DNA from: Candidatus Dormiibacterota bacterium
GTDB lineage: Bacteria > Chloroflexota > Dormibacteria > Aeolococcales > Aeolococcaceae
Length of the DNA stretch: 64,000 bases
Assembly (NCBI GenBank): GCA_963848445.1
Contig: CAWKDT010000020.1
Location: 261,703-325,702, forward strand
Reading direction: 5' to 3'
Shown here: positions 8,029 to 63,150 of the stretch, piece by piece
Layout: every line of letters begins with the position of its first letter
Numbering within the stretch: the stretch's first letter is position 1
Notes under the pieces: model-generated
Told to the model about the DNA's origin: nothing
The model's database searches: none
The model's input: the letters and a program-made list of their open reading frames with translations, nothing else
Position numbers and translations under genes: made by a program

Positions 8029-9135
8029 ATGGGACGGCTCATGGCGACGACGCCGCTGCTCATGATCCCCGGGCCGACGCCGGTTGCGCCCGACGTGCTA
8101 GCCGCGCTCGCCGAACCGGTGCGCAACCACACGGGCCCCGAGAACGCCGCCACGATGGTGCGCATCCAGGAGGGAATCCGCCGGCTGGCGGGCTCGAGCG
8201 AAGCGCGGGTGCACTGCTTCGCGGGATCCGGCACGCTCGCGATGGAAACCGCCCTGGTCAACCACGCGTCGCCCGGTGACCGTGTGCTCGTGGTCAGCCA
8301 CGGGTACTTCGGCGACCGGTTCACCGAGATCGCCGCGGCACTGGGGATGCGCCCCGAGGTACTGCACGTCGAGTGGGGAGCGCATGCCGACCCGGACGCG
8401 CTGCGCGACCTCATCGGCGGAGGCGACGCGCCGTCGCTCGTGTGCATGACCCACGTCGACACGAGCAGCGGCGTCCTCGCCGATTGCGCCGTCCTCGCGT
8501 CGACAGTGCGAGCGGCGGCGCCGGATGCGCTCATCGTGCTCGACGGCGTCTGCGCCACCGGTGGCATGGAGGAGCGCATGGACGAGTGGGGGGTCGACGT
8601 CGTGCTCACCGGTGCGCAGAAGGCGCTGAGCGTTCCGCCCGGGCTCGTCGTGCTCGCGGTGTCGGAGCGAGCGCGGCATCGCAGGGAATCGCTCGGCGGC
8701 ATCCGCGCGTACTACGCGGACCTGCGCCGTTGGGACGCGTCCGTCGACGATCCCCGCAAATACTTCTCGACGCATGCGGTGTCACTGCTGCGCGCGCTCG
8801 AGGTGTCCCTTGACGCCATCTTCGGCGAGGGGTTGCCCGCTCGATTCGAGCGGCATCGGCGCGTGGCTTCGATGGTGCGTGACGGCATGGGCGAGCTCGG
8901 GTTCGTGCCGCTCACCGAACAGCCGTACCTCGCGCCGACGCTGAGCGTGCTCGCGCTCCCCGAGGGCGTCGACGACGCGACGCTGCGCGCCGGGATGGCG
9001 GAGCGCGGCGTCGTGATCGCGGGCTGCCTTGGGCCGTGGGCGGGACGCGGCATCCGCATCGGCCACATGGGCACCACCGGCGAGGCGGAGGCTGCGCGCA
9101 CCATCGATGCGGCGGCCGCAGCGCTGGGGCGGTGA
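8029..9135 (+). CDS. class-V aminotransferase (serine/alanine–glyoxylate aminotransferase-like)
   Basis: LLMIPGPTPV N-terminus, GAQKAL PLP-lysine motif, about 365 aa; alternative ATG at 8041. Confidence 0.8.
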   Translation: MGRLMATTPLLMIPGPTPVAPDVLAALAEPVRNHTGPENAATMVRIQEGIRRLAGSSEARVHCFAGSGTLAMETALVNHASPGDRVLVVSHGYFGDRFTEIAAALGMRPEVLHVEWGAHADPDALRDLIGGGDAPSLVCMTHVDTSSGVLADCAVLASTVRAAAPDALIVLDGVCATGGMEERMDEWGVDVVLTGAQKALSVPPGLVVLAVSERARHRRESLGGIRAYYADLRRWDASVDDPRKYFSTHAVSLLRALEVSLDAIFGEGLPARFERHRRVASMVRDGMGELGFVPLTEQPYLAPTLSVLALPEGVDDATLRAGMAERGVVIAGCLGPWAGRGIRIGHMGTTGEAEAARTIDAAAAALGR

Positions 9136-9167
9136 CTTCCGGAACCAGGCGCACGCCGGTATGACGA

Positions 9168-10619
9168 GTGCTTGAGACGCCGGTCCTCGAACAGCTTCGC
9201 GCCGCCGTCGGCGCCGATGGGCTGATCACCGAGCCCGCGGCGCTGCGCACCTACGCGTGCGACGGGCTCACCGGACGGCGGGTCTCCCCCGCCGCGGTCG
9301 CGCTGCCCGCGACGACCGAGCAGGTGGCCGCCGTGGTGCGGAGTTGCGCGGCGGCCCGCGTTCCGTTCGTCGCCCGCGGCGCCGGCACCGGTCTGTCCGG
9401 CGGAGCACTCCCGGTCGCCGATGGCGTGGTCATCGGCCTCAGCAGGATGCGGTCGATCTTGAAGATCGACCTCGACAACCAGCAGGTCACCGTCCAACCC
9501 GGCGTGACCAACCTCGAGGTGAGCAAGGCGGTGCGACCGCTGGGATATTTCTACGCGCCGGATCCGTCGTCGCAGCAGGTGTGCACGATCGGCGGCAACG
9601 TCGCGGAGAACTCCGGCGGTGCGCACTGCCTCAAGTACGGGTTCACCACGCACCACGTGCTCGGTGCGACGTTCGTCACCGCCGACGGACGCATCGCCCG
9701 GCTCGGCGGCGCCGTGCGCGACTCCCCCGGCTACGACCTGCTCGGCGTCGTCATCGGCAGCGAGGGAACCCTCGGCATCGTGACCGAGGTCGTGCTGCGC
9801 ATCGTGCGCGTGCCGGAGTCCACGGAGACGATCCTCGCGGCGTTCTCGAGCATGGGTGATGCGGGTGAGGCCGTCTCGCGCATCATCGCCGCGGGGATGA
9901 CGCCGGCGGCAATCGAGATGATGGACCGGCTGGCGATCCAGGCGTGCGAGGAGACGGTGCACGCGGGCTATCCGGACTGCGGCGCCGCACTGGTCGTCGA
10001 GCTCGACGGTCCCGCTGTCGAGACCGTCGCGCTGCTCGCTCAGGTCACCGAGATCTGCACCGCGAGCGGCGCGACGAGCATCCGCGTCGCCGCCGATGAC
10101 TCGGAACGCGCGCTGATCTGGAAGGGGCGGAAGGCCGCGTTCGCCTCCATGGGAAGGATCAGTCCGGACTACTACGTGCAGGACGGCGTCATCCCTCGAA
10201 CGAGGTTGCGCGAGGTGCTTGAATCGATCGGCGACCTCTCCGCGGCGTACGGGTTGCGCGTGGCCAACGTCTTCCACGCCGGCGACGGCAACCTGCATCC
10301 CCTGGTGCTGTACGACGGCGCGGAGGCGGGGGCCGCGGAGCGCGCGCTCGAGCTGGCCGGCAAGATCCTCGGATCGTGCGTCGCCGCCGGGGGATCGATC
10401 ACCGGCGAGCACGGGGTCGGGTCGGACAAGGCCTGCCACATGCCCGCGATGTTCAGCCCCGAGTCGCTGTCGGTGATGGGCCGGGTGCGCGACGCGTTCG
10501 ACGATCGCGATCTCTGCAACCCGGGAAAGGCGCTGCCGACGCCGCGGCTGTGCGGCGAAGTTCCCGGCGTGTACCGCCCCCATGCCGCCGAGCTGGCGGG
10601 CCTGGCGGAGCGCATGTGA
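9168..10619 (+). CDS. glcD: glycolate oxidase FAD-linked subunit GlcD
   Basis: FAD-binding-4 domain (RGAGTGLSGGALP) plus C-terminal FAD-linked oxidase domain (GSITGEHGVGSDK); GTG start. Confidence 0.85.
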   Translation: MLETPVLEQLRAAVGADGLITEPAALRTYACDGLTGRRVSPAAVALPATTEQVAAVVRSCAAARVPFVARGAGTGLSGGALPVADGVVIGLSRMRSILKIDLDNQQVTVQPGVTNLEVSKAVRPLGYFYAPDPSSQQVCTIGGNVAENSGGAHCLKYGFTTHHVLGATFVTADGRIARLGGAVRDSPGYDLLGVVIGSEGTLGIVTEVVLRIVRVPESTETILAAFSSMGDAGEAVSRIIAAGMTPAAIEMMDRLAIQACEETVHAGYPDCGAALVVELDGPAVETVALLAQVTEICTASGATSIRVAADDSERALIWKGRKAAFASMGRISPDYYVQDGVIPRTRLREVLESIGDLSAAYGLRVANVFHAGDGNLHPLVLYDGAEAGAAERALELAGKILGSCVAAGGSITGEHGVGSDKACHMPAMFSPESLSVMGRVRDAFDDRDLCNPGKALPTPRLCGEVPGVYRPHAAELAGLAERM

Positions 10620-32531: not shown

Positions 32532-33885
32532 TTACGGACGCTCGACCCACAGGAAGCTGGTGAAGTTCTCGCCCAGGTCCTGCAGGTTGTCCTCGATGAC
32601 GCGCAGCCCGTGGAGGTCGGCGAGGACGCTGCTCCCCATGGTCGCGATGCTCGGGGCGAGGTCCCCCCGGGCGAGGAGCTCGGCCACCTTCGCGTGGTCG
32701 ATGAGGTCGCCCTCGCCGCTCGTCTGACGGAGGTGCGGGTACTTCCGGCGCAGCGTTTCCTGGCACTGTGCGAGGACCTGCGGATGGGTCATCACGGTGT
32801 CGACGCCCTCGAGGTCGGCGGAGCTCGCAACCATCAGGGCGTGCGCGATCTTGATGGCGAACTCCTCGACGATGGCGAACCGGTACCTGGCCATGGCGGA
32901 CACCAACTCGCCGACCATGCCGCCGACGGAGTTGTGGATCGCGAACTGACCGCGATCGACCGCGCCCTCGTGGAGCGCGCGCAGCACGTGCTCGGTGGTG
33001 TGCAGGTACACAAGCTCATACGCGACGTCCGGCGTCCGGCTCATGTACTGGCGTGCCGCTTCCTCGTTGAAGCTGCCACGCCCTCCCTGGATGCCGACGA
33101 GCAGGCGGTCGCTGACGATGCGGTTGGGCAGGAGCTGGTCGAAGACGCTGTCCTGCGCATGCGAGAGGCGAACCCGCATCGCGCTCGTGTAGGGGTTGCG
33201 CGTCTGCAGGTCGACAAAGAGCTGCTCGGTGTCGTGGGTCACCTGCGCGGTGATCTCGTGGAGCATCCGTGTTCCCAACGTATCGATCGGGGTCGGTGCG
33301 AAACCGAAGCGTTCCAACGTCCGCCCGACGAAATGGGTGACTCCCTGGCTCTCGGCGGCGAGGCGGTCATGCTCGTCGGCGGTCATGACGACGACGTTCA
33401 AACCCCGGCTCGCGAAGTAGTCCTTCCACCGCTCGAACGCCGGGCCGGGCATCCGGTAGCGATCGAGCACGATGGTCTGCCCGGCGAGGCCACCGACCGC
33501 CACGCTGTCCGGGCCGAACATCGGATGCGTCAGCATCGCGTGGTACGGAGGGCGGAAGGTGGCGACCGAAGACCGCGCGGGGGTGCACCTTGACGGAGAG
33601 CACGTCGACGAGCGTTCGCTCCCCGCCGAGCTCGGCGAAGAGCGGCACATGTTCGGCGAGCGTCGCCTCGAACACGGAGATCGGGACGCAGTAGAAGATC
33701 ACGTCCGCGGACAGCGCCTCCCGCAGGGACACGCAGGTGAATCCCTGCGCGACGGCCTGCTCGCGCAGGACATCGGCCACCTCGTGCACGAGCACGGTCG
33801 TGTCCTCGCGGAGCATCGACGCCCAGAGCCGGCCGAAGCGGCCGAACCCGATCACCGCAGCTGTCGACGCCGGAAACACGGGCAT
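32532..33885 (-). CDS. prephenate dehydrogenase (TyrA) fused to a prephenate-dehydratase-like domain without ACT domain; apparent +1/−1 frameshift near 33545
   Basis: N-terminal frame: MPVFPASTAAVIGFGRFG…RAVFGRHLPPSV; continues in another frame as YHAMLTHPMFGPDS…; downstream PDT-like domain (LVGIQGGRGSFNEEAA … THPQVLAQCQETL … NFTSFLWV) ends with no ACT domain. Confidence 0.6.
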
Positions 33886-47815: not shown

Positions 47816-48624
47816 CCTCGGATCGTCGCGAGCCCGAGGGTGCCCTGCCGCGCGCGCCGGTCGGCGCGCCAGCACCCTGCACGCATCGGCACGGGGATCG
47901 CATCCTCACCCGAAAACCACGTGCGCAATGCCTGCCGCGCGCGACCCAGCCCGGCGGCACGTGCGGCCGGGTCAGCCATGATCACCCGGCTGTGGGTCGC
48001 CAGCGCGTCGACGAGGTCGTCGATCGTCATGGTGACGGTGAAGGCGAACGATCTCGCCTCCACGTGGTTGAAGGGCGCGTCCCCGGGGAGCAGCAGCCCG
48101 GTCATCTGCCGCCGCAGGACGGCAATATCGGCATTCGCCGGCGGGTGCTCGGGCGTGGCGATTCGCAGCCGGTCGAGCTCCCGTATCCAGCCCACCTCAC
48201 GGTCGCGGCCGGCCCACACGACGCCGAACCGCCCGTGATCGCGGAGGACGCGCGCGACCTCGGGGAGCGCCCGGTCCGGGTCCATCCAATGCCAGGCGGA
48301 GGAGACGAGCACCGCGTCCTGGGACGCGTCGGGCAGCGGAATCGCCTCTGCACGCCCGTCGATGGCGCGCACCCCCGGCGTGCGAGCGATGAGCACCGCT
48401 CGCATCCGGTCGTCGGGTTCGACCGCGGTGACGTTCGCGACGCTGCCGGCGAGCGCCCGCGTGAACAGTCCGGTGCCGGCTCCGAGATCGACCGCGCTCT
48501 CGCAGTGCCGCGGCAGCAGCCACCTGACCGCAGGCGGCGGCGGTGCGGTACGGAGCCGGTCGTAATCTTCGGCGATTGCCCCGAACGACGTTGCCAGCGG
48601 GTCGTCACGAGCCACGCGACCCAT
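47812..48624 (-). CDS. class-I SAM-dependent methyltransferase
   Basis: Motif I VDLGAGTGLFTRALA and post-I/II acidic residues; ATG 48624. Confidence 0.7.
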   Translation of the reverse strand: MGRVARDDPLATSFGAIAEDYDRLRTAPPPPAVRWLLPRHCESAVDLGAGTGLFTRALAGSVANVTAVEPDDRMRAVLIARTPGVRAIDGRAEAIPLPDASQDAVLVSSAWHWMDPDRALPEVARVLRDHGRFGVVWAGRDREVGWIRELDRLRIATPEHPPANADIAVLRRQMTGLLLPGDAPFNHVEARSFAFTVTMTIDDLVDALATHSRVIMADPAARAAGLGRARQALRTWFSGEDAIPVPMRAGCWRADRRARQGTLGLATIRG

Positions 48625-48640
48625 GGTATGCAGTCCGCCG

Positions 48641-49781
48641 ATGAACGATCTCTTCGATCGGACCGCATGGGTGCTCGACCCGGAGACCCTCCACCTCAAC
48701 CACGGATCGTTTGGCGCGGTCACCAAGGTGGTGCGGCGCGAGCAGGATCGATGGCGCCGCATTGCTCAGGCGAACCCGAATGGGTTCTTCACGCGCGTGC
48801 TCGTCGACGCCCTGGACGCGGTGCGCATCAGGGTCGCGGATTTCGTCCGGGCCGATCCATCGACCCTGCTGCTGCAGCCCAACGTGACGTGGGCCGTATC
48901 GACGGTGCTGGCGTCGTTCCCGCTCCGGCCCGGGGACGAGGTGCTCATCACCGATGACACGTACGCTGCGGTTCGCGCCGCCGCGAGCGACACGTGCGCG
49001 AGGAGCGGCGCGCAGCTGGTGCAGGCGGCCCTTCCCGCATTCGACGAGCGCGATGCCGCGGACATCGTCACGGCGCTGGAGGACCGGCTCACGGCGCGGA
49101 CGCGCCTCGCCATCGTCGACCACATCACATCGCCGACCGCAACGCCGGTCGACCCGTCCGCCATCGTCGAGCGCTGCCGCGCCAACGGCACCGCCGTGCT
49201 CATCGACGGAGCGCACGCACCGGGGATGCTCAGCCTCGACGTCCGCGCGATCGGCGCGGACTTCTACACTGGCAACTTCCACAAATGGTGCTGCGCACCA
49301 TGGGGCTCCGCGTTCCTCACGGTGGCGCCACCGTGGCAGGACGCCCTGCGGTCCGCGGTGCCCGGATCGGAGGCACACCAAGGGTTCCCCGCCGGCCTGG
49401 AGTGGTGGGGCACCGCCGACTACTCCGCGCTGCTCGCGACGCCGTTCGCCCTCGACGTGCTCAAGGAAGTCGGCGTCGAGGCATTGCTCCAACGCAACAT
49501 CGCGCTGGTCAACCAGGGGGCGGCGCTCGTCGCCGCAGCTCTCGGACAGCCGGCCTCCCGCACCGAGCTCGATCGCCATGACGTGCCTCTCACTGCCGCG
49601 CACCATGGCCTGGGACGCCGAGAGCGCTCGCGCGCTGCGCCGGCGTGTTGCCGATGACATCGGCGCGGAGATCATGACGACCATGGCACGTGGCAGCGCC
49701 GTGCTGCGGCTGTCGGCTCACGCGTACAACCGCCTCGACGATTACGAGCGTCTCGCCGCCGACCTGAGCGCGCTGCGGTGA
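48641..49781 (+). CDS. class-V aminotransferase (isopenicillin-N-epimerase/cysteine-desulfurase-like) with apparent 1-nt frameshift near 49610
   Basis: LNHGSFGAV … FYTGNFHKWCCAPWGSAFL; C-terminal 55 aa (DAESARALRRRVADD…YNRLDDYERLAADLSALR) are in a different frame from the body. Confidence 0.6.
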
Positions 49782-49788
49782 GGTGACG

Positions 49789-50838
49789 TCACTGCGCCAG
49801 GCGCAGCAGCCCGATGATCCCCACCGCATAGAAGGCGACCGCCACGATCGAATCCGGCCCCAGGCGCCTCGGCCGTGACGGCCTGACGATGACACCACCG
49901 ACATAGATGGCGGTGAGTGACAGGCTCAGCGCCGCCAGCCATGCGTTGGCGATCCCGGTGCTCGGCAGCGTCGGTTTCGCAGCGACGAGATCCGCGATCA
50001 CGAAGAGGCACAGCTGGAATGCATTGCCGCCGAAGACATCGCCCATTGCAAGCTGATGGTCACCGAGACGGACGGCCTCGATGCCCGAGCTGATCTCCGG
50101 GAGCGCTGTTGCGAGCGCCAGCACCGTCGCACCGAACACCACACCGTCGATCCCTGCGCGATGTGCCAGCTCGCTCCCGGTGATCTCGAGCACGACTCCC
50201 GCAGCAAGTGTCACGAGCGACGCGACGACGAAAACCGTGACGACGCGCGCCGTCGAGTGCGTCGCGCGCGACGCGTCAGCGACAAGATGACGCACGCGGC
50301 GATGCGGGCGACCGGGTTGCGCGCCCTCCATCACCACCTTCCACCTCGGATGCGCGCGCACGCGATTGAGCACCCACACGCCAGAGACCCAGACGGCGAC
50401 GATCACCAGCGAGGCCGGGCTGACCCGGCCGCCGATCGTCACCGAGGTGGGGAGCAGCGCACCCATCAACACAGCCGCCACCGTCAGCACCACGAGCAAC
50501 CCCTCGAGCACCGGCACCAGCGACCCGACGAGATACGTGAGCGGTCGTGGCGCGAAGAGGTCGCAGATGACGAGCACCATCGTTGCGGTGGCGATGCCGC
50601 CGATCAGGTTTCCCGCCGCAAGGTCGAGATGACCCGATGCAGCCGCGGAAATCGTGATCGCCAGTTCCGGGAGGCTGCCCGCGATTGCGAGGAGCACCAT
50701 GCCCCCGAGCGCGTCACCGATTCCGAGCCGCCGGTCGAGCTCGTCGGTCGATCGGGACAGCTCGATGCCCGCTGCCCAGGTGGCGGCGGACGCGACGACG
50801 AAGAGGCCCACGACCAGCAGGACCGGCAGCGAGGACAT
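49789..50838 (-). CDS. CaCA-family cation (Ca2+/Na+ or Ca2+/H+) antiporter-like membrane protein
   Basis: Two α-repeat motifs (GDALGGMVLLAIAGSLPELAITISAA; GATVLALATALPEISSGIEAV); ATG 50838. Confidence 0.65.
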   Translation of the reverse strand: MSSLPVLLVVGLFVVASAATWAAGIELSRSTDELDRRLGIGDALGGMVLLAIAGSLPELAITISAAASGHLDLAAGNLIGGIATATMVLVICDLFAPRPLTYLVGSLVPVLEGLLVVLTVAAVLMGALLPTSVTIGGRVSPASLVIVAVWVSGVWVLNRVRAHPRWKVVMEGAQPGRPHRRVRHLVADASRATHSTARVVTVFVVASLVTLAAGVVLEITGSELAHRAGIDGVVFGATVLALATALPEISSGIEAVRLGDHQLAMGDVFGGNAFQLCLFVIADLVAAKPTLPSTGIANAWLAALSLSLTAIYVGGVIVRPSRPRRLGPDSIVAVAFYAVGIIGLLRLAQ

Positions 50839-52834: not shown

Positions 52835-53131
52835 TCAGAGCAGGCGCTGCACCGCCCCCACTTTCCGCTGCATCTCGCCCGAATCATTCCCGGCGCGATC
52901 GTCGATCTTGATGACGGTGCTTGTGCGCCGCACGCCCGCCGCGGTGGCGAGAGTCTCGTGGCAGCGCGCGAGCATGGCGAACACCCGGTCGCGCGGTCCC
53001 TCAACCTCGGTCCCCATAGCGCCGAGGCGGAAGGACAGGCCGCTCTCCTCGATGATCCGGATGGCGGCGGCCACGTGCTTCGAGTACGAGCCGGTGCCGT
53101 CGTCGGGGGCGATGCTGAACCAGGCAATCAC
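52835..53131 (-). CDS. MTH1187/YkoF-family small ligand-binding protein
   Basis: GTG start after GGAGGG; 98 aa IAWFSIAPDDGTGSYSKHVAAAIRIIEESGL… ferredoxin-like ACT fold pattern. Confidence 0.55.
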   Translation of the reverse strand: MIAWFSIAPDDGTGSYSKHVAAAIRIIEESGLSFRLGAMGTEVEGPRDRVFAMLARCHETLATAAGVRRTSTVIKIDDRAGNDSGEMQRKVGAVQRLL

Positions 53132-53244
53132 GCTCAGGCCCTCCTGTTGCTGTCTGATGTCAAACAGAATGACGCGTGAGCTGATGGCGCGGCCCTCACC
53201 TTCCCCGGTACCCTCACGGTCCGAGTAACAATCTGGGAGCCGGC

Positions 53245-56200
53245 ATGCGCTGTTCGAACTGTGGCGCCGAGAACCGTCCTGGCAGCAAGTTCTGCTCGGA
53301 ATGCGGGACGGCGCTTGCCCGCACCTGCCCTTCGTGCTCGACCCCAGTCCGTCCGGACGCGAAGTTCTGCGACGAGTGCGGCGCGCCGCTGTCGGAGAGC
53401 GCGACGCCCGCGATGGCGCGAGTCGCGACGCCAGCGCCCGTGCTCGACAGCGCCACAACCGCGGAGCGCCGCCTCGTCTCGATCCTGTTCGCGGATCTCG
53501 TGGGCTTCACCGCGCTCTCCGAGAAACGGGACGCCGAGGAGGTGCGGGAGCTGCTGACCCGGTACTTCGACACGTGCCGCGCGGTGGTCACCCGGTACGG
53601 CGGCGTGGTGGAAAAGTTCATCGGGGACGCGGTGATGGCCGTGTGGGGCGCGCCCTCCGCTCACGAGGACGATGCCGAGCGCGCGGTGCGCGCAGCGCTC
53701 GAGCTGATCGAGGCCGTGTCGCTGCTCGGTGGCGAGGTCGGTGAGCCGGCGCTGCAGGCGCGTGCCGGCGTGCTCACCGGTGCCGCGGCGGTCACCTTCG
53801 GCGCCGACGCCCAGGGCATGGTGGCCGGCGACCTGGTCAATACCGCGTCGCGGATCCAGTCGGAGGCGACCCCCGGAGCAGTGCTCGTCGGCGACGCCAC
53901 CCGAAGCGCAACCGAGGCTGCGGTCGTCTACGCGGACGCGGGGGAGCGTTCGCTCAAAGGCAAGGCGGAGCCCGTGCGGCTCTGGCGGGCGCTGCGCGTG
54001 GTGGCGATGGTCGGCGGTAGGCAGAAGTCGGAGGGGCTCGAGGCGCCGTTCGTCGGGCGCGACCGTGAGCTGCAACTCATCAAGGATCTGTTCCATGCCA
54101 GCGCCGAGCAGCGCAAGGCACACCTCGTGTCGGTCGTGGGCATCGCCGGGATCGGCAAGTCGCGGCTGTGCTGGGAGTTCCACAAGTACATCGATGGCAT
54201 CGCCGAGCTGGTCTACACCCATCGCGGCCGGTGTCTGGCGTATGGCGAGGGCGTGACGTACTGGGCGCTCGCCGAGATGGTCCGGATGCGTGCCGGGATC
54301 ACCGAGGCCGAAGACTCCGCATCGGCGCTCGTCAAGCTGCAGGCATGTCTGGACGAGTTCGTCCCGGACGCGGACGAGCGCCGGTGGGTGGAACCCCGGC
54401 TCGCCCAACTCCTGGCGCTCGAGGAGCGCGCAACCCAGGAACGCGAGGACCTCTTCAGTGCCTGGCGGCTGTTCTTCGAGCGGCTCGCCGACCGGCATCC
54501 GACGGTCCTGGTCTTCGAGGACATGCAGTGGGCGGACACCTCGCTGCTCGAGTTCGTGGAATACCTGCTCGAATGGTCGCGCAACCACGCGATCTACGTG
54601 GTGACCGCCGCGAGACCGGAGCTCGTCGACCGGCATCCCACGTGGGGTGCGGGCAAGCGCAACTTCACATCGGTCTTCCTCGAGCCACTCGCGGCGACCG
54701 CCATGGAGCTGCTGCTCGATGGACTGGTTCCCGGGTTGCCCGACGAGCTTCGGGAGCAGATCCTGCAGCGCTCGGAGGGCGTGCCGCTCTACGCGGTGGA
54801 GACCGTTCGAATGCTGCTCGACCGGTCGCTGCTCGAGCGTGCCGGCAGCGTGTACCGGCTGACCGGCGCCGTCGAGGACCTCGAGGTCCCGCAAAGCCTC
54901 CACGGGCTGATCGCCGCGCGATTGGACGGGTTGCGACCCGAAGCTCGCCATGTGCTTCAGGACGCGGCGGTGCTCGGGAAGACGTTCACGGTCGCGTCGC
55001 TCGTGGCGGTGAGCGGTGTCCAGGCGTCCGAGTTGCAGCCGCTGCTCGCGGAGCTGGTGCGCAAAGAGGTGCTTTCCGTACAGGCTGATCCGCGCTCGCC
55101 GGAGCGAGGCCAGTACGGGTTTCTGCAGGATCTCGTGAAACGCGTTGCGTACGAGACGCTCTCGAAGCGTGATCGCAAGGAGAAACACCTTGCCGTGGCG
55201 GCATGGTACGAGCAGTCGTGGGGCGGCGAAGAGGGTGACGTCGTCGAGGTGATCGCCGCGCACTATCTGGAGGCGTACAACCTCGCCCCGCAGGACCCGG
55301 ATGCGGACCAGGTCAAGGATCGAGCGGCGGACGTGCTCTTTCAGGCCGGTGAGCGCGCTGCGTCACTCGCGGCCAACCTCGAGGCGGAGCGCTACTTCGA
55401 GCAGGCATCACTGCTGGTGCCCGATTCGGCGCGGCAGGCCGAGATGCACGAGCGCGCCGGGCAGATGGCCGCGCGCACCGGTCGCAACGCCGTCGCGACC
55501 GCGCACCTCGAGCGGGCGATCACCCTGTACGAGAGCGAGCATCTCCCGCATCCCGCTGCACGCGCGCTGTCCCGGCTCGGCATGGTCGAGGCGGTGAGTG
55601 GCCAGCTCGACCGCTCCATTCAGCGAATGGAGGGCGCCTTTGCGGTGCTCGCCAACGACACGCCGGACGAAGATCTCGCGTCGCTCGCGGTGCGTCTCGG
55701 GTCGTTGCTGCACTTCAAAGGCGAGACCGAAGCCGCGAGGATGCGCCTCGAGATGGGCCTGGATATCGCCGAGAGGCTCGGACTCTCCGAGCTCGTTTCG
55801 CAAGCGCTGAACGTCAGCGCGATGCTTGCCATGCAACGGCGGCACACCGAGGAGGCGATGGCGCTCTTTGCGCACGCTTTGAAGATCGGTGTTGACAACG
55901 ACCTCCCGACAGCCACGGTTCGCGCCCATTTCAACCTCGCGGACCTGCTGTGCCACCGTGACCGCTACTTCGAGGCGCTCGATCACTATCGGAGCGCGCT
56001 CGCACTCACCCGGAAGATCGGGGACCGATCATATGAGCGGAGCACGCTCGCCGAGCTCGCGTTCAATCTCGTGCGAGTCGGCGAGTGGGATGAGGCCGCT
56101 GAGTTCGCGGGGGGGCTTCCCGAAGATGAGGTGCGCAGCGCGCCGGCTGATGTCCTGTCGCTCCTTGCCTTCGGCGAGATGCCGGTCGAACGCGGTCATG

Positions 56201-56799
56201 TCGAGGAGTTCGAGCTCCTGCTGACATGGATGGCGCCACTGGCGTCGTCGGATGACTGGCAGGCAGGCTCATGCTTCCTCGCGAGCCGCGCGTGCTTGCG
56301 ATGCGCTGAGGGCAGGTATGGCGAGGCCCTGGAGGATGCCGAGGCCGCGATCACCCTCGCCGCCCGGCTGGGCGGTGCGAGTCACCAGAGCGTCAAAGCC
56401 GGCTACCGGGCGGCGTGCGAAGCCGCATTCGCGCTGAGCGACCTGACAAAGGTCGAGGAACTGCTGGTGTTCGTCGAGCGGCTCGGAGCGGGCGAACGGC
56501 CACCGTATCTCCATGCGCAGAAAGAGCGATTTCGCGCCCGGCTCGCCGCCATCAGAGGCAGGGCCGCCGATGTCGAACCGTCCTTCATCGAGGCGGAGGA
56601 AACCTTCAAGCAGCTCGGGATGCCGTTCTGGCACGCCGTCACGCAGATCGAGCACGCGGAGTGGCTGATCGCGCAGGGAAGGCCGGCCGCGGCGCAGCCC
56701 ATGCTCACCGAGGCCGGGAGGGTGTTCGAGCGCCTCAAGGCGCGCCCGTGGCTGGACCGGGTGCAGCAGACGGCACCCGGAGCGGTGACCGCTTCCTGA
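53245..56799 (+). CDS. multidomain adenylyl cyclase: double zinc-ribbon + class-III cyclase (CHD) + STAND/AAA_16 NTPase + C-terminal TPR-like helical array (paralog 1)
   Basis: CSNCGAENRPGSKFCSECG…CPSCSTP…CDECG; CHD with all catalytic residues (FADLVGFT, EKFIGDAVMAVWG, VNTASRIQSE); P-loop VVGIAGIGKSRL, Walker B VLVFEDMQWAD; about 600-aa helical C-terminus; no HTH. Confidence 0.85.
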   Translation: MRCSNCGAENRPGSKFCSECGTALARTCPSCSTPVRPDAKFCDECGAPLSESATPAMARVATPAPVLDSATTAERRLVSILFADLVGFTALSEKRDAEEVRELLTRYFDTCRAVVTRYGGVVEKFIGDAVMAVWGAPSAHEDDAERAVRAALELIEAVSLLGGEVGEPALQARAGVLTGAAAVTFGADAQGMVAGDLVNTASRIQSEATPGAVLVGDATRSATEAAVVYADAGERSLKGKAEPVRLWRALRVVAMVGGRQKSEGLEAPFVGRDRELQLIKDLFHASAEQRKAHLVSVVGIAGIGKSRLCWEFHKYIDGIAELVYTHRGRCLAYGEGVTYWALAEMVRMRAGITEAEDSASALVKLQACLDEFVPDADERRWVEPRLAQLLALEERATQEREDLFSAWRLFFERLADRHPTVLVFEDMQWADTSLLEFVEYLLEWSRNHAIYVVTAARPELVDRHPTWGAGKRNFTSVFLEPLAATAMELLLDGLVPGLPDELREQILQRSEGVPLYAVETVRMLLDRSLLERAGSVYRLTGAVEDLEVPQSLHGLIAARLDGLRPEARHVLQDAAVLGKTFTVASLVAVSGVQASELQPLLAELVRKEVLSVQADPRSPERGQYGFLQDLVKRVAYETLSKRDRKEKHLAVAAWYEQSWGGEEGDVVEVIAAHYLEAYNLAPQDPDADQVKDRAADVLFQAGERAASLAANLEAERYFEQASLLVPDSARQAEMHERAGQMAARTGRNAVATAHLERAITLYESEHLPHPAARALSRLGMVEAVSGQLDRSIQRMEGAFAVLANDTPDEDLASLAVRLGSLLHFKGETEAARMRLEMGLDIAERLGLSELVSQALNVSAMLAMQRRHTEEAMALFAHALKIGVDNDLPTATVRAHFNLADLLCHRDRYFEALDHYRSALALTRKIGDRSYERSTLAELAFNLVRVGEWDEAAEFAGGLPEDEVRSAPADVLSLLAFGEMPVERGHVEEFELLLTWMAPLASSDDWQAGSCFLASRACLRCAEGRYGEALEDAEAAITLAARLGGASHQSVKAGYRAACEAAFALSDLTKVEELLVFVERLGAGERPPYLHAQKERFRARLAAIRGRAADVEPSFIEAEETFKQLGMPFWHAVTQIEHAEWLIAQGRPAAAQPMLTEAGRVFERLKARPWLDRVQQTAPGAVTAS

Positions 56800-58576
56800 T
56801 CAGTCCCCGCTTGTCTGCCCGAAGGTGAGCGAGGCCGACGGATGCGTCCGTGCCAACCGCGCCTGCGCGCTCCCCAGTGCGGTGGGTGAGAGGTTGGCGA
56901 CCGTCATGGCGTTGACGAAGTCGTCTCCGTTGATGCGGTAGATCGCGCACGGTGCCACGGTCTTCACCGTCGCGGTCCGAGCGCGATGCTCGAGCAATCC
57001 GATCTCGCCGAAATAGTTGGGTGGGCCAAGCACGCCGAGGGACTTCTCGACTCCCGCCTCGCCGGCCGCCAGGATCTCGACCTGACCGTCGGTGAGGACG
57101 AAGAAATCGTCCGCATCTGCGCCCTCGCGAATAAGCACCGTGCCGGCCTCGACCTTCTCCTCCACCGCCGCTCTGGCGATGCGCTCCAACGCCGCGCGAG
57201 TCGCGCCGGCGAAGATGTCGAGGCTCTGCAGCACGAGCGATGCGCGGTTCGATCGCGGAGAGCTCGCGCAGTGCTCGCAGGTCGAGGACGCGGATCCACG
57301 GATACGCGCAGATGCAGAGCGCGGGAATCGCGAATCCCATGATGAGGAGTGTCGCGGTGAATCCCACGCTGCCGAGCAGGATGGGCATGAGCAGCGCGCC
57401 GAGCGAGATGGCGGACAGCACGAGCGCGAAGAAGACTCCGAAGACTCGCGCGACGACCTCGGGTTTCACGAGGCGCTGCAACGCCGTGATCGCGAGCACG
57501 TCGACGACGATGGTCCCCGCGCCGCGCACCACCTCGAGCACGAACGCGATCCACGGCGAGTGCACGATCGTCAGGAGGGATGTCGGCAGGCAGTACACCG
57601 CCATCCCGATGACGATGATCCGCCCGAGCCGGCCGGCGGATGCGACTCGATTCATGAATCCGGCGATCAGGATCCCTCCGACCCCGAGTGCAGCGAGCAG
57701 GTAGCCATATCCGCTGCTGCCGGTTCCCAGCTGATTCTTGCTGATGACCACGAAGAGCACCGTGTCCGTCCCGTAGACGAAGCTCGCGAGGATGCTGAAA
57801 CCCGCAAGGAGCGTGACGCTCGGCGACGACACGAATGCGCGGAAGCCGACTCCCATCTGCTTGAGCGGTCCCGCGGTGCCGCCCTCGGTGATGTCCGTGG
57901 GATGGCTTCTGGTGCGCATCCGGCTGACCACCAGTGCCGAGAACCCGAACGTCGCGGCGTTGACACCGAACACGACCGCCGGCGGGCTGAAGAGCAGCAG
58001 CACGCCCGCGATCGCGGGCCCGACGATGATGGACAGGTTCTCGACCACCGATTGCGCGCTGTTGGCGGCCGCGAGGTGCTCCTCACCGACGATGATCGGT
58101 GTCGTCGCGCGGGCGGCAGGGTCGTATGAGGACGTTGTGATCGAGGTGAGCGCAGCGAGCACGATCGCCAGCACCACGGGCCCGTTCAGCGCCGCGACGA
58201 CGGCCAGACCGGTCTGGAACGCGAGCGCAAGCGAATCGAGACTCACCATCAAACGCACGCGCTCCATCCGATCGGCGATCAATCCACCGATGGGGCTGGT
58301 GACGAGCGCCGTGAGGAAGCGCGTCATCGACGCCGCCGCAACCCACGCCGGTGAGTGCGTCGCGTTGAACACGAAGACCACGAGGGCGACGTTGTAGGCC
58401 CACGATCCGCTCATCGAGATGGTCAGCCCGCTGAACAGCAGCCGGTAGTCGCGGTTGCGGAACAGCGAGCGGTAGCCCACCCGGGGCGTCGCGTCATCAG
58501 GGCTCCGGCCGGTCAGCCGCGCGAGGAGACGGCGCCTGACCGAGGGCTTCGGCTCCGCTGCGACCTGCGTGCTCAT
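56800..58576 (-). CDS. MFS transporter fused to a C-terminal cyclic-nucleotide-binding (CNB) domain; apparent frameshift at the junction (about 57235)
   Basis: 12-TM MFS body (MSTQVAAEP… to …CICAYPWIRVLDLRALRELSAIEP), then in the +1 frame LQSLDIFAGATRAALERIARAAVEEKVEAGTVLIREGADADDFFVLTDGQVEI…YFGEIGLL (canonical CNB); the MFS frame continues as Arg-rich junk. Confidence 0.7.
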
Positions 58577-58657: not shown

Positions 58658-59541
58658 ATGCGGCTGCGGCTCTGCGGCACGAGGGGATCCACGCCCGCGC
58701 CGGGCGTCGACTACACCCGGTACGGCGGTCAGACATCGTGTGTGGCGGTGGTGTCGGACGGCGGCGAGTGCCGTCTCATCCTCGACGCGGGCACCGGCCT
58801 GCGCAGGCTGCCCGCGGCGCTGGACGGCGCGCCGTTCAGCGGCAGCATCCTCCTCACCCACCTCCACTGGGACCACACGCACGGCCTGCCGTTCTGCCCG
58901 TCCGTCGACAACCCCGGCGCGCGGACGGCCCTCTACATCCCCGAGCAGCCGGGCGGTGACGCCGAGGAGATCCTCGCCCGCGCGATGTCGCCGCCGCATT
59001 TCCCGATCCGCCCGCGCGAGATGCGCGGATCGTGGCAGTTCGAGCACCTCAGCCCGGGCGAGCATCGCATCGAGGGCTTCGACGTCCTGGCGCTCGAGAT
59101 CCCTCACAAGGGCGGGCGCACATTTGGGTACCGGGTCTCCGACGGTCACACATCCATCGCGTACATGCCGGACCATGCGCCGATCGCCCTCGGCCCCGGG
59201 CCGGACGGGTTCGGCCCGTACCACGAGGCGGCCGTGCAGCTCACCCAGGGTGTCGACCTGCTCCTCCACGATTCGCAGTACACGAGCGAGGAATTCCCCG
59301 CGCGGGCGCATTTCGGGCATTCGAGCATCGACTACGCCGTCGGCCTTGCCGCACACGCCGGCGTGCGGCGGCTCGTGCTCTTCCATCACGATCCCTGGCG
59401 ATCGGACGAGCAGCTCGACGGCATCGTCGCGCGCTGGTCCGATGCGCCGGTGCCCGTGAGCGCCGCGATCGAGTGGGATGTGCTGGACGTCGGCGGCGCC
59501 TCCGACCCACGGGTCGAGCGGCAGCAAAGTACGCTCCGCAC

Positions 59542-59545
<4 letters not shown>
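58658..59545 (+). CDS. MBL-fold metallo-hydrolase
   Basis: HxHxDH motif (LLTHLHWDHTHGLPF) plus downstream His/Asp ligands (HDSQY…GHSS…FHHD); TGA overlaps the GTG start of the next cyclase gene. Confidence 0.75.

Positions 59546-63150
<3,605 letters not shown>

Follow-up and report, generated by a model that had tools for sequence, protein, structure and literature searches.

Fusions of a major facilitator superfamily (MFS) transporter with a cyclic nucleotide-binding domain have been catalogued by Willson, Dalzell, Chapman and Thomas (2019, Microbiology 165:419; cited in PMC10710835); a regulatory role is presumed for them, and no member is experimentally characterised. The catalogued transporters consist of an MFS body, a cytoplasmic linker and a C-terminal cyclic nucleotide-binding (CNB) domain with a canonical phosphate-binding cassette (PBC), which is the same order that we find in one gene of the window (the whole stretch of 64,000 nucleotides analysed here). 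The cyclic-nucleotide-gated channel SthK likewise carries a C-terminal CNB domain that is joined by a helical linker to the last transmembrane (TM) helix, and its CNB domain matches that of the window gene at E ~6e-7. Channels of the SthK type pass ligand binding on to the membrane domain, and this likeness may hint at a possible mechanism for the window protein, not at membership, as these channels are tetrameric ion channels, whereas the window protein is an MFS secondary transporter and presumably monomeric. MloK1 is another prokaryotic cyclic-nucleotide-gated channel. Rv3239c and Rv3728 of M. tuberculosis were reportedly listed by McCue et al. in 2000 as MFS-type cNMP-binding membrane proteins; in comparison with these two, the window protein has an MFS_3/DHA3-like body and ends right after a single CNB domain.

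The MFS–CNB fusion family is already known, its members are named 'MFS transporter' by NCBI, and the window adds nothing new to it. The initial annotation had called transporter–CNB fusions uncommon, which needs a caveat for the present type: besides being catalogued in the literature, the MFS–CNB family is large, and an exhaustive profile search retrieved 841 cluster representatives of the fusion (50% identity) at E<=1e-30. Among the best 150 of these 841 representatives, 116 are full length and 109 contain a PBC-like motif.

In the window, the gene lies on the minus strand and is read in two frames. The MFS body and the first part of the linker helix (57238..58576) begin with the ATG at 58576, span about 12 TM segments and remain in the original frame up to ...SAIEPRI; the rest of the linker and the C-terminal CNB domain, with the PBC FGEIGLLEHRARTATV, follow in the +1 frame (56800..57235) and end with the TGA at 56802-56800. 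The MFS frame runs on after ...RVLDLRALRELSAIEPRIA through 167 Arg-rich codons (56735..57235, minus strand), which are not a real protein segment, and together they form an ORF of 613 aa (56735..58576, minus strand). Specifically, both MFS_1 (E 6e-30, aa 47–382, 104.7 bits against a cutoff of 33.4) and MFS_3 (E 5e-29, aa 39–421, 101.5 bits against 27) exceed their Pfam gathering thresholds over the 12-TM body of this ORF, placing it in the major facilitator superfamily, and no Pfam match is found in the ORF beyond aa 421. The ORF of 144 aa at 56800..57234 (minus strand), which sits +1 relative to the MFS frame, matches cNMP_binding (PF00027, E 9.4e-20, 70.8 bits against a cutoff of 27.5) and contains FGEIGLL-x5-RTATV, so that a complete CNB domain is predicted with the family score above threshold. 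Among PDB sequences, it is closest mainly to the regulatory domains of PKA and PKG (E as low as ~1e-15), and the ligand-contacting PBC residues F522, G523, E524 ... R533, T534, A535 and T536 are invariant across 25 orthologues. Upstream of 57234, the CNB frame lacks stops for a further ~240 nt. The Arg-rich read-through overlaps the CNB frame, where the selection signal described below lies, and an open alternative frame of this kind is unremarkable because such frames are common at 68% GC.

These domains and frames, together with the orthologues, confirm the earlier description of an MFS–CNB fusion gene that is cut by a +1 frameshift at the linker. The junction had been put at about 57245, correctly at the fusion joint but 8 nt away from the exact lesion at 57237/57236; the read-through of the MFS frame is indeed Arg-rich and implausible as a protein, but comprises 167 codons instead of about 150.

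The membrane domain gives its best NCBIfam matches with TIGR00900, EntS, Tet(V), Mef and Tap, all far under the family cutoffs: TIGR00900 (DHA3 H+ antiporter) scores 158.4 against 319.6, EntS 100.5 against 324 and Tap 31.8 against 625, and the domain thus falls outside these families as they are defined. Because of these scores no substrate can be assigned to the MFS body, which is described as DHA3-like only. The DHA3-type exporters EntS, Tet(V), Mef(A) and Tap/Rv1258c match nearly the whole 12-TM body, again below cutoff, and none of them has a CNB domain. A count of 12 TM segments is consistent with hydropathy and with the helices predicted by a low-confidence AlphaFold2 model of the orthologue P0001, which was built from an alignment of 25 sequences with 76–92% identity and has a mean pLDDT of 43 (75–89 for the CNB domain alone); this model is poor and was therefore used for rough helix positions only.

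DNA alignments to relatives trace the frame change to a single extra base at 57236..57237 (minus strand), ATCG[C]TCGTG. The window reads ATC-G[C]TC-GTG, in comparison with ATC GTC GTG (I-V-V) in L001 and L002 and ATC GCC GTG (I-A-V) in L003 and L039, and depending on whether GTC or GCC is the true allele, the extra base is the C at 57237 or the T at 57236, respectively. The site is thus a C/T polymorphism among relatives, and the 'GCTC' of the window holds both alleles in tandem. Within the linker, it falls in the dipeptide that varies most, PRI[AVTLEQ][VATIM]LQ, between TM12 and the first CNB helix, and the extra base is not within a long homopolymer. Against L001 and L002, it is the sole indel in the gene. 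As the initial annotation had suggested, we aligned the junction to orthologues; deletion of one base restores an ORF of 1776 nt that encodes a protein of 591 aa, 99% identical to P0001 and P0002, the intact 591-aa proteins of loci L001 and L002. The two domains are in separate frames in the window as given and in a single frame after this one-base deletion.

With a repaired protein as query, we retrieved hundreds of MFS–CNB proteins of 574–598 aa that are not interrupted; their named sources are nearly all Candidatus Dormibacterota MAGs, and the frameshifted 613-aa product of the window itself (P0118) was also among the matches. The Dormibacterota orthologues, P0001, P0002, P0018 and P0061 among them, are 77–99% identical to the window protein over 591 aa once the base is removed. 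They share the cyclase neighbourhood, with the metallo-β-lactamase (MBL)-fold gene in the closer clade, and the window differs from them only by the extra base at 57237/57236. We collected 38 loci of relatives (35 species representatives from a genome collection and three ENA contigs), all from Candidatus Dormibacterota or Actinobacteria, and the fusion is encoded in one in-frame ORF in 34 of them; the arrangement that would have spoken against a fusion, a natural stop followed by a separately initiated CNB gene, is therefore not what the orthologues have. Other broken copies occur in L003, L033 and L038, each at different positions, and all three are 'MFD' long-read MAGs. Frameshifts in the MFS–CNB gene were found in 0 of 17 short-read MAG loci, and the comparison between long-read and short-read assemblies (3–4 of 21–22 versus 0 of 17–18) is a trend only. 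The frameshift of L033 (OY970307.1, a circular MFD MAG) lies at ~8215-8222 and that of L003 at ~9972, and the gene of L038 (CAWCZS010000002.1) is frameshifted three times within 8525-9337.

The window contains further frame changes. A codon-usage log-odds track trained on the window, which replaced a GC3 frame plot because the latter was too noisy, found the change at 57237 again, came to a stop at 49556 and brought the one at 33549 to light. The second insertion, at 49556, reads GGCC[T]CCCGC in the window versus GGCCCCCGC in L001 and L002, and splits a class-V aminotransferase gene (Aminotran_5; 48623..49781, plus strand), which is intact at 385 aa in both of these loci. When the base is deleted, a 385-aa aminotransferase is obtained with 377 of 385 residues identical to that of L001. 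The third frameshift, at ~33549 (minus strand), lies in a prephenate dehydrogenase/prephenate dehydratase fusion gene (~33850..32532), with the Rossmann half in one frame and the HPMFGP half plus the prephenate dehydratase domain in another. If the T in CGCCC[T]CCGTA is skipped, the product gives a gapless alignment to prephenate dehydrogenase (PDB 5T9F, E 5.5e-30) across the joint; this putative extra base was placed from codon usage and protein alignment. For each of the three insertions of the window (57237, 49556 and 33549), the notation C[T]C is possible. When ten pairs of overlapping ORFs on the same strand, taken from other parts of the window, were scanned with Pfam, they proved to be separate genes, with no split gene among them.

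The closest relatives show the same kind of damage in other genes. L001 and L002 are 98% identical to the window DNA over 15.5 kb, and in the three-way alignment of this region all indels within coding sequence are insertions of one base, and each disrupts a gene either in one or both of L001 and L002 or in the window alone. The insertions of L001 break a TPR tail, cyclase 1 and a thiamine-binding protein gene, and the break in cyclase 2 is common to L001 and L002. The insertion sites lie at ~5604, 7349, 13152 and 15516 in L001 and at ~7349 in L002 (ENA ERZ25039558 / ERZ25039458). An identical extra T (GAG[T]TCGAG) is present in both loci and suggests that the error is systematic and depends on sequence context. 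Two private insertions of L001 (alignment columns 1031 and 10944) also hold both alleles of a neighbouring SNP in tandem, a pattern that can arise when a consensus step collapses co-existing strains. The isolate names of the relatives are of the 'MFD' type, and their contigs are named 'contig_N'. Long-read MAGs of Microflora Danica are Nanopore-only Flye assemblies with one round of Medaka polishing (PMC12313526), and we infer that the assembly behind the window was of this kind too, like those of its closest relatives.

From these findings, we conclude with a probability of about 85% that what is one intact 591-aa MFS–CNB gene is split by the erroneous insertion of one base when long reads from a metagenome of mixed strains were assembled. 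This reading is favoured because of the intact orthologues, the other insertions in the window, the private frameshifts of the sister assemblies and the purifying selection described below; the error at 57237 is deduced from assembled sequences. The initial annotation had also ranked a sequencing or assembly indel first and programmed frameshifting last, and the orthologue and error-load evidence supports the same order.

The best surviving alternative is that the insertion is real, that is, a very recent inactivating or uncoupling mutation that leaves an MFS transporter with a junk tail and without its cNMP sensor, either a young pseudogene or a deregulated pump. We consider this improbable, although the extra base is present in the sequence as given and genes do decay at the level of strains. 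The CNB frame differs from those of L001 and L002 by 18–20 synonymous and 4–5 non-synonymous changes (dN/dS 0.07–0.08); of 26 differences, 21 lie at third codon positions of this frame, among them 11 that occur in the window alone. This purifying selection after the shift indicates that the CNB frame has been translated throughout the divergence of the lineage; with dN/dS at 0.07, selection downstream is not relaxed as a real inactivation would imply. Additionally, two more frameshifts in conserved genes, including one of the tyrA/pheA type, within 64 kb would amount to an implausible density of pseudogenes, different genes are broken in the near-identical sister assemblies, and the 'GCTC' with both alleles points to a consensus artefact. 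An exact search of JGI metagenome contigs for the frameshifted 40-mer gave no match, and this also speaks, weakly, against a real mutation; it carries little weight because the in-frame version was itself found in one contig only (L039, 88% identical, with the GCC allele).

The divergence around the junction bears on both readings. The MFS body (57238..58576) has 99.1–99.2% DNA identity to L001 and L002, and exactly at the frameshift the divergence of the window from these loci climbs from about 1% to about 5%. The base thus stands at the border of a block with higher divergence, possibly a genuine import by recombination, and to that extent favours a real mutation; the rise could reflect either a recombination boundary or a switch of strain in the consensus. 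On a larger scale, the divergence from L001 and L002 is mosaic, with a baseline of ~1% and blocks of 4–15% at 57254..56755, 54005..53000 and 50506..50007, and one of the divergent blocks begins exactly at the 57237 frameshift. This mosaic points to recombination among strains or to a strain-chimeric consensus. If a strain-specific loss of the sensor were true after all, it would be of minor interest.

It is very unlikely that two naturally separate genes are present, an MFS transporter and a stand-alone CNB protein starting at the GTG at 57234. This GTG is the start of the listed ORF 56800..57234, but no Shine-Dalgarno-like sequence precedes it, and in the orthologues it is an internal Val codon of ...PRI[A/V]VLQSLD.... 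No stop codon interrupts the MFS frame near the junction, and this frame continues for 167 codons through the CNB gene, and a split arrangement at the 57237 site occurs in no orthologue among the 38 loci. We rule out a naturally split gene pair because the fusion is encoded in one frame in 34 of these loci. Least credible of all is programmed +1 ribosomal frameshifting, which would join MFS and CNB in a regulated ratio of sensor-less to sensor-bearing transporter and for which the layout is suitable (the frames overlap by ~240 nt and the shift required is +1), but which is excluded because the shift is not conserved among orthologues (34 of 38 loci have one frame, including the 99%-identical relatives, and three others are broken elsewhere), and which by inspection has neither a slippery nor a hungry codon to support it, since CGC ATC GCT CGT GCT GCA offers no 0-frame stop (for 167 codons), no rare-codon pause and no recognised +1 motif.

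With the assembly error as the preferred reading, the main value of the window is that of a quality flag, as it holds at least three single-base insertion errors (57237, 49556 and 33549) that create false pseudogenes. Gene calls from this MAG therefore need frameshift-aware annotation or re-polishing.

The intact gene lies in a conserved neighbourhood. Cyclase 1 (53245..56799, plus strand, 1184 aa) is a class III nucleotide cyclase with Zn-ribbon, Guanylate_cyc, AAA_16 and TPR regions; its Pfam matches are Guanylate_cyc PF00211 (E 5e-20, 72.3 bits against a cutoff of 21.9), AAA_16 (E 1.3e-22), TPR_12 and DZR. It is convergent with the MFS–CNB gene with zero spacer, the stops occupying 56797-56799 and 56800-56802. 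Cyclase 2 (59542..63150, plus strand) encodes 1202 aa from the GTG at 59542 and comprises Zn-ribbon, cyclase, AAA_16 and TPR regions, with the families taken from its L001/L002 orthologues. The L001/L002 orthologues of both flanking genes carry PF00211, identifying the two as class III cyclases, and in these loci the cyclase domains of 1 and 2 are 69% identical. Of the 36 Dormibacterota loci inspected, ~32 have cyclase genes no more than 8 kb away from the MFS–CNB gene. The placement of the fusion between cyclase genes, which the initial annotation had found functionally suggestive, is thus upheld, both flanking genes being class III cyclases in an arrangement conserved among relatives.

Between the MFS–CNB gene, from which it diverges, and cyclase 2 lies a gene for an MBL-fold hydrolase (58658..59545, plus strand), a candidate atypical class-II cyclic-nucleotide phosphodiesterase that adjoins the MFS–CNB gene in the closer clade. 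The protein matches Pfam Lactamase_B_2 (PF12706, E 1.8e-20) and contains the motif THLHWDH. The pattern [T/S]HXHXDH is the signature of Rv1339-type atypical class-II phosphodiesterases (PMC9293780), and with PF12706 plus a motif of this form the MBL protein qualifies as a putative member. Rv1339, CpdA of C. glutamicum and YfhI share with it the PF12706 fold family and a motif fitting [T/S]HXHXDH. The motif THLHWDH alone is insufficient for phosphodiesterase identity because it is common to other MBL hydrolases. In contrast to Rv1339-type phosphodiesterases, the window protein scores far under the equivalog cutoff of NF041851, 'cyclic nucleotide-degrading phosphodiesterase' (full length, E 6e-10, 38.9 bits versus 400), and its best PDB sequence matches are RNase Z. 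The stop of the MBL gene overlaps the start of cyclase 2 (GTGA), and because the two are translationally coupled, a degrader and a synthase of the same messenger may be encoded in one operon.

This arrangement suggests a mechanism in which the adjacent class III cyclases would supply cAMP or cGMP, this nucleotide would bind the cytoplasmic CNB domain of the transporter, the resulting conformational change would be relayed from the CNB domain via the linker helix to gate transport, and the neighbouring MBL-fold enzyme would degrade the cyclic-nucleotide signal. On the strength of gene order and domain content, we infer that cNMP from the adjacent cyclases may allosterically switch the MFS–CNB transporter. 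A more specific proposal, which we hold to be doubtful, is that the intact gene is the output of a self-contained cAMP module conserved in Dormibacterota, consisting of two cyclases, the MBL candidate and a cNMP-gated DHA3-like pump, in which the pump would be switched on by cAMP and would export either cAMP or a cAMP-controlled metabolite. If true, such a cAMP-switched pump would be the first characterised cyclic-nucleotide-gated secondary transporter. Because it is conserved between cyclases and a candidate phosphodiesterase, the MFS–CNB gene is a reasonable model for post-translational cyclic-nucleotide control of an MFS transporter, and the value of the locus as a model is independent of the window.

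The two cyclases are alike in their build, each starting with a double zinc-ribbon that is followed by AAA_16 and TPR regions. Their best NCBIfam match is 'TOMM system kinase/cyclase fusion protein', far below its cutoff. In relatives, up to three paralogous copies of this Zn-ribbon/AAA_16/TPR type of cyclase are found around the transporter.
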